A stretch of 20,000 bases of DNA from an uncultured virus (IMG/VR IMGVR_UViG_3300035181_003152) (IMGVR_UViG_3300035181_003152), one strand, 5' to 3'. Numbered from the stretch's first letter, positions 2,503 through 13,959 are shown. A program made the numbers and translations. The notes: generated by a model from the letters alone, not told the origin.

Positions 2503-2997
2503 TCAGTGGCGCGTAGCGTCAAACGTTCTTGATTTAGGCTCGCGCTGGGACTCGCCGCCGCAGGGCACGCTGAGCCGAGGCGCCATCAACCCGCCTGAAA
2601 TCGCCACCTGCTCTGGCGCGTCATTCGCCGCGGCCGTCACGTCCACGCCGTCGGGCACGGTCTGGCGCGCCGGCCTCTTCGCTGCCTTCTTGGCCTGTTT
2701 GGCCTCCCACGTGGCGATGTCTGCCCGCTCCTTGGCGCACCGCTCGGCCAGTGCGGTGGCCGCTCTCTCTTCCTCGACCTGCACTGCGGCAGCGGCTTTC
2801 TCCTCGTTGACGGCGCGCTTGGTGGCGTCCGCCTGGAGCTGCGCCGTCTTCGCTCGGGCGAGGTCCGCCTGCGCGTCGAGCGCACGCACCTGCGCCGCTA
2901 CGACAGCCGGATCCGGGGCTGAGCTGGCCGGTAGCGGTGCTGCCGCCGGCGGAGCCGAGCAGCCGGCAAGAAGGACAAGAAGAACGAGACGTCGCAT
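2503..2997 (-). CDS. Lipoprotein with Ala/Glu/Lys coiled coil (164 aa), moron
   Basis: MRRLVLLVLLAG-C lipobox followed by a helical, charged core. Confidence 0.75.
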   Translation of the reverse strand: MRRLVLLVLLAGCSAPPAAAPLPASSAPDPAVVAAQVRALDAQADLARAKTAQLQADATKRAVNEEKAAAAVQVEEERAATALAERCAKERADIATWEAKQAKKAAKRPARQTVPDGVDVTAAANDAPEQVAISGGLMAPRLSVPCGGESQREPKSRTFDATRH

Positions 2998-3090: not shown

Positions 3091-4239
3091 ATGTCCACGT
3101 TCCGATCCACGCTCGTCCCCGACGCCCCGATCGTCCCCTCGGCGCGAAAGCCTTTCGACGACGTCGCCCGCCAGGAGGCCGACGCGCGCGCGCTCGCCTC
3201 GCAGCTCTTCCTGGCCGAGTGCCTCATCGCGGGCACCGCGGCCGCGTGGGTCAAGCTCGACGTCACCAGCGTGGCGGTGGTCAAGGGCGACGTCCTCGTG
3301 CGCACCAGCGCGAACTCGGCGCTCACCGTCACCCGCGCCGACGCCTCGCCGCTCGCGGCCGCGGGCATCCCCTACGGCATCGCCGTCCGCGCGGCCGCAC
3401 CCGGCGCCAATGTCCTCGTCGCCTTCGACGGCGTCGTCGGGCCGGACGTCACCGGGCTCGCCGCCTCGAGCCCGGGGCCGGTGCGTGTCGCCGCCTTCCG
3501 CGCTGCGCAGGTCTCCGCCCTCGTCGGCGGTGACTTCCCCCTGGGTTACGTCGACGCTGCCGGCTGGCTCACGTTCGCGCGCGGGCTGGCGGTCGGCTCG
3601 CCGGCGGCAGGCACTGCGGGTAACCCCGGCGGCGACGGCAGCCCCGTCACGATCGTCGGCGGCGCGCCGGGGGACGCCAGTCACAAGAGCGGCGCCGTGC
3701 AGGTCCAGCTCGGCACCCCGGGCACGACCGACGGGCACACCGGCCAGTTCGCGGTCCTCGCCGGCTCCGTAGGAACGGCGCTCACAGTCGAGTACGATGA
3801 TGGCTCTGTCTCCGGCCTCCAGGGCGTCAAAATTGACGTCCCCAGCGCGTTTACGCAGCTCAATGGCGACTTGGCGGTCACCGGCGGGCTGGCTGTAGGC
3901 GGAGGGCTCAACGTCGGCGGAGCTCTCGCGACGGCCGCGCCGGTAGCCTCACCATCAGGAGCCACCTACACAGCGAGTTCCGCAGCAGGGAACACACTCA
4001 CGATCAGCGTCTCCGGAGGCATCGCGATCTCCGTCAACGTGGCCAGCACGGGCATCCAGTTCGAGATCTTCATCATTCAGGACAGCGCCGGCAGCCATGC
4101 CGTTACGTGGAACGCCGCCGTGAAGTTCGCCACCGGCGTGAGCAACGCGGCCTCGCTCACGGCCAACGGCAAGACGTGGTTCCAGATTCGTTTCCTTGGC
4201 GGCGTCGCCTACGTCGTCGCGCGCGCCGTCCTCTCCTGA
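3091..4239 (+). CDS. Virion fibre/decoration protein (382 aa)
   Basis: The N-terminal 'KGDVLV..ADA..GIAVRAAAPGANVLVAFDGVV' resembles DUF2190/capsid-cement-like modules. Gly-rich middle. The C-terminal 'IIQDSAGSHAVTW' is a common fibre-tip motif. Confidence 0.65.
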   Translation: MSTFRSTLVPDAPIVPSARKPFDDVARQEADARALASQLFLAECLIAGTAAAWVKLDVTSVAVVKGDVLVRTSANSALTVTRADASPLAAAGIPYGIAVRAAAPGANVLVAFDGVVGPDVTGLAASSPGPVRVAAFRAAQVSALVGGDFPLGYVDAAGWLTFARGLAVGSPAAGTAGNPGGDGSPVTIVGGAPGDASHKSGAVQVQLGTPGTTDGHTGQFAVLAGSVGTALTVEYDDGSVSGLQGVKIDVPSAFTQLNGDLAVTGGLAVGGGLNVGGALATAAPVASPSGATYTASSAAGNTLTISVSGGIAISVNVASTGIQFEIFIIQDSAGSHAVTWNAAVKFATGVSNAASLTANGKTWFQIRFLGGVAYVVARAVLS

Positions 4240-4278
4240 TCCATCCCCGATCCCCACCGCCCTCGGAGTCCACCGCCC

Positions 4279-4629
4279 ATGAAAGCCCAGTACCTCTCCG
4301 CATTTCGCCGCTTCGCCGATGGCGCCGTGCTGGCCATGTTCGGCCTCGACGATCGCGGCGCGCTCCGCACGGCCAGCGAACCGTGGAGTGGGCTGGAGAC
4401 CGTGGACCTCAGCTCGGCCGACGCCGTCTACACGTCGGCCACCGGCTGGCCGAGGAGCATCCGCGCCACCGCGGCCGGCAACGTCAAGGTGGACTGTCTC
4501 AAGGGCGATGGCACCGCGCAAACCGGCCTGGTCATCGCGGTGACCGACTTCGAGAACCTGCCGCTTAGCCACGTCACCAAGATCTGGAAGGTGGGCACGA
4601 CGGCCACCGGCCTGTTCGTGGGCTTCTGA
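4279..4629 (+). CDS. Head-spike base protein, RcGTA Rcc01079 (GhsA)-like
   Basis: GGAG RBS. 'PRSIRATAAGNVKV...LPLSHVTKIWKVGTTATGLFVGF' matches the family pattern R-x-x-x-x-x-x-G-N/D-x-x-V ... P-x-x-V-x-x-V-x-x-TGTTAT-x-I as I recall it. Confidence 0.75.
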   Translation: MKAQYLSAFRRFADGAVLAMFGLDDRGALRTASEPWSGLETVDLSSADAVYTSATGWPRSIRATAAGNVKVDCLKGDGTAQTGLVIAVTDFENLPLSHVTKIWKVGTTATGLFVGF

Positions 4630-6476
4630 TGATCGGCGTAGGTATTGGACCGGGGTTTGGCGCACGGCGGGCGGCTGTCCCCGGCCTGCGTCTCGACTTC
4701 GGCTCGGCGGCGAGCTCGTACTCCGGCCTCGTGGCGACGACGACGGGCAGCGTGTACCTCCAGGCGGCCGGCGTCCCTGTCCTCGCGACGGGCGCCACCA
4801 ACCCGCTCTGGGAGGACCTCGGCGGCAACGAGGGCGGCGGCGTCCACGTCTTTTCGAGCACCGTCAACGCCGCGCCGAGCCCGATCGACTTTCGCACGTC
4901 GGCAGGCTGGACGAACAGCGGCGGTATCGCGATCACCAACGCGGCTGTCCTCGGGCCCGATGGGCTGACGATGGCGCAGAGCGTGGCCGACACCGTGACC
5001 AACGATGAGTCGCAGGTGCTCTATCTGTTCCCGGGCGGCGCTCAGGGACAGTACGCCTCGTGCTGGATCAAAGACGATGCGTCGAATCCGCCCAACGACT
5101 TCTTTTCGCTGCAAAAGGGCAACTACACCGGCATCCACCAGCCGCACTACGCCGGATGGACGCGCGTCACGAACTACGACGTGGCCGGCTCGGCCACGTA
5201 CACCGGCTTTGCGCCGTCGGGTACGACGTCAGTCAACGGCGCGACCCTTACCGGCCTCGGCGCGACGTGCGTGTGGGGTTTCCAATCCGTCGTTGGGCCG
5301 CTGTCGCCGCCGCTGATTTCGAGCGGCACCGCGGCTGCCGCAAAGACGCTCGACGCGTCCGCGTGCGCAAAGGCCATCGACAAGAACGGCGCGCTGGATT
5401 TCCAGGTCACCGTGGCCCCCGGAGCGGGCGACCGTTCGGGCTCGCAAGGCGTCAACCTCGACCTCGGCGACCTCCAGGTGGTGCCGAGCTACTTCCTCTG
5501 GTCGTTCACCACGACGGACGGGCGCTCCTCGCTCCGGTACATGCAGGGCACGGGCGGCGCGCCCGGGTTCTACACGCTCGAGGTCCGCGGCGTCGACGTC
5601 GGCAGCACGCCGACGAACGGACACACCGGCATTTTCGGCAGCGGACAAGCCATCACCCTGCGGTGCTGGTACAACCCCGCCACGACGAGCGCTGGTATCC
5701 GCGTGAGCGTCAACGGCTGCTACATGTCGGACGTGGCGATTACGGCGTCTGGCACAGCGCTCGTGCGGCCCTCGACGATCTACCTCGGCACCAACGGAGG
5801 CTCATCCACGGCAGCGATGGTCGGTCGTTTCACGAAGTCGCCGACGCGCACGCTGCTCGCGGGCGCCGCGCCCGAGTTCCTGTTTCTCGGCGACTCCATC
5901 ATGGGCGACCTCGGCGTGACGTACATGCCGGTCGGCTCGTGGATCTACACCGCAGCCGAGATGGGCACGCGCCCCGGGATTGGCTCGCTCGCGGTCTCCG
6001 GCAACACGGTTCAAAACCAGCTTAACTTCTTCAACGCGTCGGCGTGGAAGACGGCGGCGGTCAAGGCCGTGGTGGTCCAGGTCGGCATCAACGACATCAA
6101 CACCGGCGCTACGGCGGCAGCGACGATTGCCAGCCTTCAAGCGCTGGCCACCGCGATCAAGACGGCCATTCCGCTGGCGAAGGTCGTGCTCTGTCAGCTG
6201 CTCCCCTGCTCGACGTTTCTGACGAACACGTTTGGCGCGGCCTATCAAACGAAGTGGGTCGCGGTCAACGACGCTATCGCCGGTCGCGGGGGCACGCCGA
6301 TCACGGGCGTCGACTACCGCGCTCTGACGGGCGACGTCGGCAGCACGCTCAACGACGGAGCCAACAACATCCCGACTGGGTATCGTCTCGCCGATGGCCT
6401 GCACACCAACACCAACGGCCGGGTCGCCAACGCGGTATACGCCCGCGCGGGGCTGCACTCGCTCGGCCTCATCTGA
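4629..6476 (+). CDS. Head-spike fibre-like protein with C-terminal SGNH/GDSL hydrolase (615 aa)
   Basis: TGATG-coupled to the spike base. N-terminal MIGVGIGPGF peptide and a beta-sandwich-like middle. SGNH blocks: FLGDS, AVSGN, VGIND, DGLHTN. Confidence 0.85.
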   Translation: MIGVGIGPGFGARRAAVPGLRLDFGSAASSYSGLVATTTGSVYLQAAGVPVLATGATNPLWEDLGGNEGGGVHVFSSTVNAAPSPIDFRTSAGWTNSGGIAITNAAVLGPDGLTMAQSVADTVTNDESQVLYLFPGGAQGQYASCWIKDDASNPPNDFFSLQKGNYTGIHQPHYAGWTRVTNYDVAGSATYTGFAPSGTTSVNGATLTGLGATCVWGFQSVVGPLSPPLISSGTAAAAKTLDASACAKAIDKNGALDFQVTVAPGAGDRSGSQGVNLDLGDLQVVPSYFLWSFTTTDGRSSLRYMQGTGGAPGFYTLEVRGVDVGSTPTNGHTGIFGSGQAITLRCWYNPATTSAGIRVSVNGCYMSDVAITASGTALVRPSTIYLGTNGGSSTAAMVGRFTKSPTRTLLAGAAPEFLFLGDSIMGDLGVTYMPVGSWIYTAAEMGTRPGIGSLAVSGNTVQNQLNFFNASAWKTAAVKAVVVQVGINDINTGATAAATIASLQALATAIKTAIPLAKVVLCQLLPCSTFLTNTFGAAYQTKWVAVNDAIAGRGGTPITGVDYRALTGDVGSTLNDGANNIPTGYRLADGLHTNTNGRVANAVYARAGLHSLGLI

Positions 6477-7922: not shown

Positions 7923-8251
7923 GCCGCCACGCAGAGCGCGAGGCGCGTGCCGTCGCAGAGGTCGACATCGACGAGCCACCACCTCGCCGCGCCCACGAGG
8001 ATGGTGCCGTCGGCTTGCAGCACGCCCGCGGTGAGCAGGCGCAACGTCGACGGAGTGAACGACGCGTCAGGTCGTGTAGTGAGCGTCCAGTGACCCTCGG
8101 CGTCGATGAGCGGCCAGCGCTGCTCTCCCGAGGCGAGGCGCACCGCGCCGGTGTCGAACGTTGCGCCGCGCAAGGCGGCAAGGAACGCAGGCGTGAGCAC
8201 GGCGGAGCTGCGTGCGCGGCCGAGTTTTTCGGGCGGAGGTGTGAATCCCAT
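7919..8251 (-). CDS. Hypothetical soluble protein (110 aa), moron
   Basis: Globular composition; coupled to the membrane gene; has its own extended -10 promoter. Confidence 0.65.
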   Translation of the reverse strand: MGFTPPPEKLGRARSSAVLTPAFLAALRGATFDTGAVRLASGEQRWPLIDAEGHWTLTTRPDASFTPSTLRLLTAGVLQADGTILVGAARWWLVDVDLCDGTRLALCVAA

Positions 8252-8257
8252 CCGCGC

Positions 8258-8266
8258 AGTCTACCA
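8258..8266 (-). promoter_or_regulatory. Extended -10 promoter, leaderless
   Basis: TG-G-TAGACT-N6-ATG(8251). Confidence 0.55.
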
Positions 8267-8317
8267 CGCGCCGCGGGCGCCCACTTCGTCTCCACCTCCA
8301 ACCCCTTGAGGCTCTCC

Positions 8318-8788
8318 ATGCGCCTGCTCTTCGCGGCCGCGTTCTTCGCGGCCTTCATGCTGCTGGGCTGCGCCAGCCCGCTCACCACCTCGATCAACGT
8401 CGCCAACGCGCTCGGTAACGTGGCCAGCGCGAGCGGCCAGCAGGTCAACGCCGACTTCGCGCGCGCCGATCGAGCGTGCCTGTGGGCGCCCACCGGCGCG
8501 CCGGTGACGACCACCGTGGACGCGCAGGCTCAGTGCCTCACCAGCGTGCGCGCTCAATACGCGCCCGCGCTCAAAGCCTACGACGCCTTCCTCATGGTCT
8601 GGGCGCCTTTTAGCTTCGCGGTGCGCGTCGCCGAGGCCAACGAGGTGCTCGGTAGGGCGCCCAATCTCGACAGCTTCGCCGCTCTCCTGCCGGAACTGCT
8701 GAGGACCGCCGACGCCTTCGCCGCGCACTACAAGGCGCTTGTCGCGCCGCCACTCCCCGCCACCTCCACCACGAAAGCGGGCCAATAA
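8318..8788 (+). CDS. Helical lipoprotein (156 aa), possible lysis accessory
   Basis: GAGG RBS and MRLLFAAAFFAAFMLLG-C lipobox. The true start lies inside ORF 8015..8788. Confidence 0.8.
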   Translation: MRLLFAAAFFAAFMLLGCASPLTTSINVANALGNVASASGQQVNADFARADRACLWAPTGAPVTTTVDAQAQCLTSVRAQYAPALKAYDAFLMVWAPFSFAVRVAEANEVLGRAPNLDSFAALLPELLRTADAFAAHYKALVAPPLPATSTTKAGQ

Positions 8789-9626: not shown

Positions 9627-10871
9627 ATGTCCATTCGTTCCACGCTTGCCGTCCTCTTCGTTTTCGTCCTCTCGGCCTGCGGCACCCCGCGTGCGCCCAC
9701 GGACGCGGGCCCCTCGGCTGCGGCCAGCGTCGCGCATGCGCCAGAGACCGCCGTCGCCACGTCTGCGGCCCTCGTCGCGATGGGCGGCGCCTGCGTCACA
9801 AGCGCCGACTGCGGGACTGGCCTGTACTGCGAGATCGGCGCGGGCGCGCTCGCGTCGAGCTTCGCCCTCGACCACACCTGTCAGCCCGCCAGCTCGGCGG
9901 CGATCGCCACGGTCTCAACGTGCACGCTCCCGTCGCTCGCAGCGGTGACTCCCGTCGTCATCACGTACACGACCGACGGACTGACGTGCTCGGTGTTCCA
10001 GCCGTCGACGGGGACCAACCTGCCCGTCGTGGTCGCACTGCCTTACGGCGGCTTCGTCCAGCAGTTCGCAGGCAACCCGGACTTCGTGAACTACGGCAAA
10101 CAGGTCGTAGCGTCCGGCAAAGTCGCGGTGCTCTGCAACTACACCAAGGCGACGGCGACGATCTCCGGCGTCCCCGCCGAGCTCTCCGACGTGCGCTGTG
10201 CGATTCGTACGGCCGGCTCCTCGGCGCTCGGCGCGGCCTTCACGGCGGCGGGCGGCGGCACCTACCGCGGCAGCCCTTCGCGCGTCGGCGTGGTCGGCTC
10301 CTCGGCTGGCGGCTCGCTCGCGCTCGATGCTGTCCTCGACGAGGACGTGCCCGCGCTCGCGCTCCCCGACACGACGGCACCGGGCACGTACCACGCGCCG
10401 CTCCCGCTCGATTCGGGCACCTGCATCGCCGGCACCTCAAGCATCCTCGGCATGGTCAAAGTGCTCGTCGCCGCGGCCCCGCCGACGGACCTGCCTGGCC
10501 CGACCGGCTACGGGGACGCCGCGCACCCCACGAAAGTCGCGACGCTCGACGCCTACGCCGGCTCGGCGGTGAACCCCGCGCGCGCCGATGCTCTCTCGGC
10601 GGTGTCGCCCGCGCTCTTCGACATGGCCCACCCGTACCCCGGCGCGCCGAAGGTGCTGCTGATCCAGTCGAGCGGCGACACCGCCGTCGATCCTGCGCAG
10701 TCGGCCGCCATGGACGCGGCTCTCGCGGCGCACGGGTACAGGCACTCTCGCATCCTCGCGGCTCCGCTGATGTGCGGCGTCACCCCCTGCTCGCATCCCT
10801 GGCAATTGACCATGGGCGGCGCCGCACTCGCTGGCAATTGCACCGCGTGGGCGCTGCTCGCCACGCTCTGA
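9627..10871 (+). CDS. Lipoprotein alpha/beta-hydrolase (esterase/lipase, HSL/BD-FAE-like)
   Basis: AAGGGAG RBS and lipobox LSAC. Oxyanion-region 'PVVVALPYGGF', nucleophile elbow GSSAGG, Asp in GDTAVDPAQS, His in CSHPW. Confidence 0.85.
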   Translation: MSIRSTLAVLFVFVLSACGTPRAPTDAGPSAAASVAHAPETAVATSAALVAMGGACVTSADCGTGLYCEIGAGALASSFALDHTCQPASSAAIATVSTCTLPSLAAVTPVVITYTTDGLTCSVFQPSTGTNLPVVVALPYGGFVQQFAGNPDFVNYGKQVVASGKVAVLCNYTKATATISGVPAELSDVRCAIRTAGSSALGAAFTAAGGGTYRGSPSRVGVVGSSAGGSLALDAVLDEDVPALALPDTTAPGTYHAPLPLDSGTCIAGTSSILGMVKVLVAAAPPTDLPGPTGYGDAAHPTKVATLDAYAGSAVNPARADALSAVSPALFDMAHPYPGAPKVLLIQSSGDTAVDPAQSAAMDAALAAHGYRHSRILAAPLMCGVTPCSHPWQLTMGGAALAGNCTAWALLATL

Positions 10872-12709: not shown

Positions 12710-13309
12710 ATGGTCGACCCCTGTTCGCCCGATGCTCTCTCGCCCGCGCTCGCCGACACGCTGCCCGCGGGCGCGCCGCAGTACATGGCGCCCGAGCAGA
12801 TCCCCGCGCGCCACTCCACGCCCGGGCGCCGCGCCACGATCTCCCTCGTGGTGATCCACACGACGGAGAACGACTGCAAACCGGGCACCGCGCGCGCGGT
12901 AGCCCGCTACTTCGCTACCCCGCCGGCCCCCCAGGCGAGCGCGCACTACGTCGTCGACGCGGGCGAGATCGTCCAGTGCGTCCCCGAGGCCGACGAGGCG
13001 TGGGCCGCGCCTGGCGCGAACTGGCAAGGCGTGCACGTCGAGTTCGTGGGCAGAGCCACGTGGAGCGCCGAGCAGTGGGCTACGGCCGACGTGGAGGCGA
13101 TGCTCGGCCTGGCGGCTGTCCTCGTGGCCGACATCTGCCGGCGGCGCGCCATCCCAGTCGCCAAGCTCGACGCGGCCGCCGTGCGCGGCGGGACTAGCGG
13201 GCTGTGCGGCCACGTCGACGTCAACCACGCCTTCCACCACGGCAACCACTGGGACCCAGGTCCGGGCTTCCCGTGGGAGAAGTTCTTGGCGTTGGTGGCG
13301 TCGTCGTGA
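12710..13309 (+). CDS. Endolysin, N-acetylmuramoyl-L-alanine amidase (Amidase_2)
   Basis: Motifs VVIHTTE, ASAHYVVD, EAWAA..AN..GVHVEFVG, CGHVD and HWDPGPGFPW supply the Zn ligands H/H/D and catalytic E. Confidence 0.93.
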   Translation: MVDPCSPDALSPALADTLPAGAPQYMAPEQIPARHSTPGRRATISLVVIHTTENDCKPGTARAVARYFATPPAPQASAHYVVDAGEIVQCVPEADEAWAAPGANWQGVHVEFVGRATWSAEQWATADVEAMLGLAAVLVADICRRRAIPVAKLDAAAVRGGTSGLCGHVDVNHAFHHGNHWDPGPGFPWEKFLALVASS

Positions 13310-13959
13310 GCGCCTCGCGCTCGAGCGGCGGCCTGCTCTTGGCCGCGGTGATGGCCGGCGACCACGTCCCGCCCACCTGGGCCGACGTCGACGTGGGCGG
13401 CGGCCTGGTCGTCTGCGTGGCGAGCGACGCCCTGCGCGCTGGCATCGACGAGGCGGGCGCGCCGGTGCGGCTGCCCGCCAGCTACGCGGAGACCATCGCC
13501 ATCTGCCGCGCGCTCGACTGCGTGCCGCCCACGCGCGAGATCAGCGACGCGATCTGGCGAGCGGCCAGCGTGCGCGTGCGGCCGCAGGGGCTCGTGGTGA
13601 CGACGGGCGACGCGCGCCAGATGGCCACCGTCGAGTGGAGCTTGCGGCACAACGCGGCGATCGAGGGGCAGCTGCGCGACCGCGACGTCAAGCCGGAGAA
13701 CATCGTCGCCGACGTCGGCAAGGACTGGATTCTCGATAACGGCCTGGCGGTGCGCGGCGCGGTCAACTACGGCTGGCGCGCCGACGCGCACCACCTCTTG
13801 CAGCCGCTCGGCCACGCCCACAACGCGCAGCACTGGGACTACAGCCAGGTGGTGCGGCTGGTGAAGCGGTGCGCGCGGCTCGACGGCGCGGTGGTCGACC
13901 TGCTCGACGTGCTCGTGGCGCGCGGGCTGGCGAAGAGGTGGGCGGCGGCGCTGAGGTGA
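13306..13959 (+). CDS. Uncharacterised enzyme-like protein coupled to the endolysin (217 aa)
   Basis: GTGA overlap with the amidase; motif-rich (GKDW, NYGW, QPLGHAHNAQHWDYSQ). Confidence 0.75.
   Translation: MSASRSSGGLLLAAVMAGDHVPPTWADVDVGGGLVVCVASDALRAGIDEAGAPVRLPASYAETIAICRALDCVPPTREISDAIWRAASVRVRPQGLVVTTGDARQMATVEWSLRHNAAIEGQLRDRDVKPENIVADVGKDWILDNGLAVRGAVNYGWRADAHHLLQPLGHAHNAQHWDYSQVVRLVKRCARLDGAVVDLLDVLVARGLAKRWAAALR

Follow-up and report, generated by a model that had tools for sequence, protein, structure and literature searches.

A head-spike-like gene pair with a predicted SGNH esterase in a contractile-tailed provirus

Can a phage carry a polysaccharide-modifying enzyme on its head rather than on its tail? 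Two overlapping genes in a 20,000-nucleotide stretch of DNA from an uncultured virus (IMGVR_UViG_3300035181_003152; the whole stretch is called the window below) raise this question. They recall the head spike of the gene transfer agent of Rhodobacter capsulatus (RcGTA), which consists of the base Rcc01079 (GhsA) and the fibre Rcc01080 (GhsB) (PDB 6TB9, 6TBA, 6TSU and 6TUI; family NF048002), and the second of the two genes ends in an SGNH/GDSL hydrolase domain. The TGATG-linked genes for 116 and 615 amino acids, the MIGVGIGPGF start and the intact SGNH blocks reported in a preliminary description are all found in the sequence. We put the probability that the pair encodes a head-mounted, active esterase at roughly 0.6. 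The features concerned are the following.

4251..4278, + strand: left border of the putative cassette, from which X2 and X3 contigs align, with a probable ribosome-binding site, GGAG
4279..4629, + strand: predicted spike base of 116 aa, a divergent Rcc01079/NF048002-type jellyroll by profile and fold
4627..4631, + strand: TGATG stop/start overlap, the base TGA (4627-4629) overlapping the fibre ATG (4629-4631)
4629..6476, + strand: head-fibre-type protein of 615 aa, with a docking peptide, a beta-rich middle and an SGNH hydrolase
4629..4658, + strand: predicted docking peptide MIGVGIGPGF, in a register that matches RcGTA fibre residues 2-10
4680..5858, + strand: middle region, residues 18-410, with one or more possible ConA/LamG- or CBM-like beta-sandwich domains (a lead only)
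5883..6419, + strand: SGNH/GDSL hydrolase domain, from PF13472, Foldseek and motif residues

The window is the final part of a 75,903-base provirus record in IMG/VR (G000), about 75% complete, and its DNA was matched in four runs, all of them sediment or microbial-mat metagenomes, one of which may be its source. A PHROGs scan of 26 proteins of the record identified a large terminase, portal, head morphogenesis protein, scaffold, major head protein, tail sheath and endolysin, and a tyrosine integrase (PF00589) lies at the left end. Since integrase, terminase, portal, capsid and tail sheath occur together, we take the record, on its gene content, to be a temperate contractile-tailed phage (myophage). 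An origin as a gene transfer agent, defined as a host-maintained structural cluster without replication or integration genes of its own, was ruled out for this 75.9-kb provirus by the same set of genes. Both of the two organism-named sequences among the best 120 integrase relatives listed are from Sorangium (50-51% identity). Together with a GC content of 70%, these relatives point weakly to a Sorangium-like or Polyangiaceae-like myxobacterium, and the myxobacterial host proposed at the outset stands as a weak suggestion from the integrase.

Several other genes of the record were noted in passing. An amidase endolysin (phrog_12609, E 3e-38) is encoded at window positions 12710-13309 (+) and 13204-13959 (+), 6 kb 3' of the spike pair, with mixed-strand accessory genes between. 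A second hydrolase, an alpha/beta-fold esterase (BD-FAE, E 1.5e-10) at 9627-10871 (+), has a lipoprotein-like signal (LSAC) and Cys-rich segments and may be an enzyme of the surface or of lysogenic conversion. Two more ORFs, at 2503-2997 (-) and 8015-8788 (+), have motifs like those of lipoprotein signals (LLAGC and LLGC), the second ORF being possibly spanin-like, and the gene that follows the spike pair is possibly holin-like. Further away, a gene for 554 aa that lies between a tape-measure-like gene and the tail tube region (G000:C1:46287-47951) had no PHROGs match; its product looks like another baseplate-wedge protein, one that contains a large insert. Directly upstream of the spike pair, an Ala/Gly-rich protein of 382 aa (3091-4239, +) had no match in Pfam, PHROGs, NCBIfam or PDB sequences. 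It may be a second appendage, since its N-terminal part presumably resembles anchor domains of the capsid-cement or head-fibre type, and its C-terminal part a fibre tip.

The small gene, whose product has the C-terminus KIWKVGTTATGLFVGF, had been called a homologue of Rcc01079, with a profile search proposed as a check and a lack of structural similarity named as grounds for refuting it. Profile and structure both bore the proposal out. NF048002 is its top NCBIfam family, at 21.1 bits (E 2.8e-4), though below the curated cut-off of 28 bits; its two nearest relatives score 18.4 (P0003) and 21.9 bits. An exhaustive search returned 19 relatives, of which P0003 was scored separately; 17 of the remaining 18 match NF048002 and 7 exceed its cut-off. 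The score below the cut-off weakens formal membership of the family, not homology. Against PDB sequences, a profile made from the protein's own matches (P0001 as the base, profile A1) hit only 8cjz_h (1.4e-5) and 6tb9_E3 (2.1e-5) at E<0.5, and a wider base profile gave 6tb9 at 5e-19 and 8cjz at 2e-17, with no others below E 0.08. The AlphaFold model has a mean pLDDT of 81.7, above 90 in each ten-residue block over residues 41-116 and 42-58 over residues 1-30; the latter lie in a poorly modelled N-terminal stretch, presumptively a capsid-gripping arm, by which the protein is about 25-30 aa longer than Rcc01079 at this end. When this model was aligned with VIA-align to 48,161 chains, the spike base of Carin-1 (8cjz_h) ranked first with Z 9.8 and the RcGTA base (6tb9) second with Z 8.6, followed at Z 6.2 by a phi812 baseplate domain (9euf) with 4% identity. 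Foldseek with the same model against the PDB returned nothing at E<=0.001, and both 6tb9 and 8cjz were unlisted. In the ESM Atlas, a cluster bearing the spike base family name scored 0.92 to the protein. A conserved SEP motif aligns to the ESP of Rcc01079, with its Glu off by one from the cation ligand Glu12. Profiles and the predicted fold together show, at that level of evidence, that the base is homologous to Rcc01079 and shares its small jellyroll fold.

The base and fibre genes overlap, and the TGATG arrangement likely couples their translation; an overlap of 1 or 4 bases is seen in 23 of 33 other viral base-fibre pairs. As described in PMC7296036, the RcGTA base is a pentamer that attaches to capsid pentamers and grips a single fibre through residues 2-10, which form a five-point star within it. 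A docking-type N-terminus had been proposed for the fibre studied here, and MIGVGIGPGF indeed follows the register of the RcGTA peptide, with non-polar residues at positions 2, 4, 6, 8 and 10 (I, V, I, P and F). Four of these five pocket positions are aliphatic or aromatic, and position 8 is a proline, as in L014 and unlike in the RcGTA fibre. Of 1,281 ATGs counted over the two strands of the genome, a single one, that of the fibre gene, opens with M-x-G-h-G-h-G (h standing for a hydrophobic residue). Predicted complexes of the fibre's first 34 residues with four copies of the base (residues 21-116), one fewer than in the native pentamer, scored 0.00 in two of two predictions with controls that did not fold, which counts neither for nor against docking. 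We consider it very probable that the fibre docks into the base.

This N-terminus also bears on whether the 615-aa protein belongs to the virion at all, as opposed to being a soluble esterase freed at lysis or a lysogenic-conversion enzyme with a vestigial peptide. Among the four fibre homologues (46-74% identity) the peptide is kept only in L005; P0024 starts with another sequence, the peptide is missing from P0025, and P0026 sets in downstream of its position, so the fibre body may be mounted another way. Lysis-type genes and another hydrolase in the region would suit a non-virion enzyme, as would the case of Peru-2, a phage with Ig-like vertex pentamers whose virion GDSL esterase co-purifies, was not located in the structure and is suspected by its authors to be internal (PMC13320782). 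Yet the fibre gene overlaps the base gene, the L005 homologue retains the peptide behind a different base, and the N-terminus, by eye, has no long hydrophobic stretch of the export-signal type. A role outside the virion is therefore highly improbable in our judgement, and we return to a fibre docked in its base.

Where would this spike sit? Tailed-phage heads have five-fold vertices, 11 of them free, and their tails have six- or three-fold symmetry. A pentamer with five pockets suits the vertices and not the tail. Moreover, we place the spike on the head because the two base relatives with solved structures belong to entries of capsids (6tb9 and 8cjz), and by the title of entry 8CJZ, a mature capsid, a true phage, Carin-1, carries such a base on its capsid. 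The pair might instead have been redeployed to the tail, baseplate or neck, where it would act as an accessory tail enzyme like G7C gp63.1. Its genes sit 3' of the baseplate-region genes, about 20 kb away from the capsid gene at G000:C1:38917-39945; PHROGs labels the base family 'tail fiber protein' (phrog_12296, E 0.0026); the third fold match lies in a baseplate; the N-terminal extension of the base is unusual; and a 2017 review (PMC5380687) assigns the depolymerases described so far to tail fibres or tailspikes, apart from a single pre-neck case. On the other side, the base of RcapNL received the same label by similarity alone (PMC5026251), and in RcapNL and P8625 the base-fibre pair follows lysis or tail genes, which suggests that a location away from the head genes is usual. 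We judge mounting on the tail rather unlikely and a place on the head quite probable. Counted against a head-mounted esterase were the base score below the NF048002 cut-off, the 'tail fiber protein' label and the gene position after the baseplate, and also the missing Foldseek match, the poor model of the base arm, the Glu12 offset and the homologues without peptide or catalytic Asp.

The fibre's C-terminal domain has, on sequence and model, a clear SGNH/GDSL fold. PF13472 covers residues 419-597 (E 1.7e-12, 48.7 bits against a cut-off of 32.9), and blocks I, II, III and V read GDS (421-423), SG (457-458), GIND (486-489) and DGLH (589-592), with the codons of S423 at 5895-5897, G458 at 6000-6002, N488 at 6090-6092, D589 at 6393-6395 and H592 at 6402-6404. 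The Ser, Gly, Asn and His are invariant in all five fibre sequences, and the triad Asp is kept in three, being absent from P0025 and P0026. The full-length fibre model, built on a 5-row alignment, has a mean pLDDT of 37; residues 1-413 are unusable, with the middle below 50, and the model is reliable in parts of the C-terminal domain only. Foldseek gave 125 matches for it at E<=0.001, those listed being SGNH-type proteins; the top matches included a sialate O-acetylesterase (6xpm, E 9.7e-7), PAF-AH and TesA. Against the 74%-identical L005 fibre, a crude Nei-Gojobori estimate from this one pair, at high dS, gave a dN/dS of about 0.27 for the whole fibre, the same value for its SGNH part and 0.21-0.36 for the middle, which indicates purifying selection on the fibre. 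GC3 in the base and fibre ORFs (0.87-0.90) matches that of neighbouring genes, and the PF13472 match and the dN/dS ruled out a chance open reading frame. The complete SGNH domain claimed initially is thus upheld.

Whether the domain turns over a host substrate is a further step. The protein could be a head-mounted adhesin whose SGNH domain holds on to acetylated sugars with no useful turnover, or has a target other than the host, for example an acylated lipid or the polysaccharide of mats or sediment. Such a role would fit the binding function of the RcGTA head fibre, a capsule polysaccharide binder modelled as lectin-like (PMC10218006); the SGNH motif is missing from 26 of 33 other viral fibres, the triad Asp from two of four homologues, and lipid and thioester hydrolases are among the structural matches. 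Against it stand the five catalytic-motif residues, all intact in this fibre, the invariance of four of them, the dN/dS of the SGNH region, and the fact that the characterised phage SGNH receptor-binding proteins covered in PMC9569702 are active deacetylases. We therefore hold an adhesin without useful catalysis to be unlikely and expect, with good confidence, an active domain. Thioesterases and PAF acetylhydrolases among the top matches mean that the fold does not settle the substrate. We favour deacetylation because the SGNH tail proteins G7C gp63.1 and Pectobacterium phage Possum gp66 de-acetylate O-polysaccharide (same source), and an O-acetyl group on a polysaccharide seems a reasonably likely target.

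The sugar-binding domain that had been assigned to the middle of the fibre is a lead at best: ESM Atlas neighbours are ConA/LamG-like, but residues 18-410 had no Pfam match at E<=1 and the model is unusable there. One viral cluster at a score of 0.96 has PF13385 in 41% and PF02018 in 16% of its members, and PF13385 occurs in 10-41% of members across the neighbouring viral clusters.

The pair does not appear to be bound to this genome. In a 32-kb provirus unrelated to it (L005/G001), the 74%-identical fibre follows a base that is only about 32% identical (30/95 aligned), and tblastn matched no other G000 protein there. Contigs from two other runs, X2 and X3, align from 4251 onwards, with unaligned sequence continuing upstream, and X2 and X4 have contigs that span the junction of base and fibre. 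These comparisons mark the base-fibre pair, as far as sequence can show it, as a mobile cassette. MW202476.1, a related myophage of which 52 of 77 kb were examined, yielded no spike base, nor did G002 (50% complete), and a candidate in G003 was dropped as a weak partial match within a 398-aa frame. The left end of G001 (L049:1-726) holds a recA fragment (PF00154, E 1e-92), possibly its integration site.

Several searches for further pairs returned no match: the base itself (P0001) in viral contigs or cultured phages, alignment A2 in metagenome or genome contigs, alignment A5 in metagenome contigs, the capsid protein in genome contigs, and a strict DNA pattern for the junction. A DNA pattern combining the base end with a docking-type start found 34 viral loci, and 33 of the 34 upstream ORFs match the base profile at E<=2.6e-4; L035, whose upstream ORF failed it, was dropped. 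This pattern selects for the peptide, so the frequency of the peptide among bases cannot be read from the survey. The 33 fibre partners, four of which are cut by the locus edge, measure between 43 and at least 1,173 aa and make up 19 sequence groups. Seven of them carry the SGNH motif, under a rule set after the sequences had been seen, against 0.035 expected from shuffles; they belong to four groups (L009/L020/L021/L027, L013, L017 and L023). On Pfam only L017 passes the cut-off, with L013, L020 and L009 weak, and a profile of the fibre's own SGNH domain could not separate other fibres from shuffles (best 8.3 vs 6.6 bits), which makes these SGNH-bearing fibres, by sequence, distant from that of G000. 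The phrog_2 terminase was found in none of the five records searched among the seven. Lectin cargo recurs too, as CBM_5_12 or Laminin_G_3 is present in the fibres L008:3538-6930, L018:2714-3520 and L041:5237-6991. Three of the 33 partners are complete ORFs of 43-54 aa with little beyond the docking peptide (L010:3536-3667, L019:3374-3520 and L024:3356-3520); possible readings are minimal plugs, adapters or frameshifted fibres.

Among cultured phages, three were located through the base alone, RcapNL, P8625 and elemoF, with one match to an Edwardsiella phage left out; in this small check, which has no bias towards the peptide, a Gly-Leu-Gly-Leu peptide starts the next gene in RcapNL and P8625 but not in elemoF. 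PMC5026251 and PMC8601537 report Rcc01079 homologues in phages and prophages. The label of a GTA-type pair thus holds for the Rcc01079-type base and not for any specificity to gene transfer agents, since these three phages also have the base. As Carin-1 has it too and SGNH-type cargo recurs, the module is not peculiar to G000.

If the head-mounted esterase is real, it could work as follows. Base pentamers would occupy the 11 free capsid vertices, each holding one fibre by its alternating hydrophobic/Gly peptide as a plug. The middle domain would bind the sugar coat of the host, and the SGNH domain would strip O-acyl, probably O-acetyl, groups from the surface polysaccharide. De-acetylation would loosen each contact and let the particle advance through the matrix until the contractile tail meets its receptor; such bind-and-release movement is speculative. 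More broadly, the Rcc01079-type pentamer might be a general vertex socket for interchangeable monomeric enzymes, with 11 SGNH deacetylases serving as a bind-and-release device in this phage. Unrelated phages would share the pentamer, and this myxobacterial myophage would use the device to pass through host exopolysaccharide ahead of tail engagement. We offer this wider proposal tentatively and find it less than even in probability.

Both halves of the arrangement are already known, the RcGTA-type spike, also on a true phage capsid, and the SGNH deacetylase. Searches of openly accessible full-text articles turned up no account of an esterase carried by a head spike of the RcGTA type; the word 'esterase' does not occur in PMC10218006 on the RcGTA fibre, and passages of PMC10589892, PMC11476376, PMC11934525 and PMC13317679 hold nothing on spike cargo. 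The pair is a real and well-supported instance of a recurring variant for which we found no published counterpart, its location and activity being predicted. A catalytic head spike would, if true, give the virion a second site of matrix remodelling and would mean that many 'tail fiber' or 'GDSL lipase' genes beside a small base are mis-assigned. The fibre domains would point to an acetylated polymer on the surface of the host, which is uncultured and probably a myxobacterium. Base and peptide lend themselves to recombinant testing without the phage and could make a compact capsid display tag; should the socket proposal hold, ten residues would suffice as a tag for attaching any enzyme to a capsid of this kind.

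Set beside RcGTA, which has eleven spikes on capsid pentamers, the pair shares a base with a small jellyroll fold (18% identity; Z 8.6 and rmsd 3.3 A over 81 residues) and an adjoining fibre gene with an N-terminal alternating hydrophobic/Gly peptide. It differs in size, with a base of 116 aa against 84 and a fibre of 615 aa against 325, in a fibre that ends in an SGNH hydrolase where that of RcGTA is lectin-like, and in its carrier, a contractile-tailed temperate phage rather than a gene transfer agent. The best structural match, the spike base of the Cobetia marina phage Carin-1 (8CJZ chain h; 24% identity, Z 9.8 and rmsd 3.7 A over 78 residues), comes from a T7-like podovirus, whereas G000 is contractile-tailed. 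With G7C gp63.1 and Possum gp66 the fibre shares an SGNH domain on a virion appendage, here a predicted one; in those two it de-acetylates surface polysaccharide while the phage adsorbs. Those proteins are tail fibres or tailspikes with tail-attachment domains, whereas the fibre described here would be a monomer, held by a predicted ten-residue plug in a pentamer at a capsid vertex.
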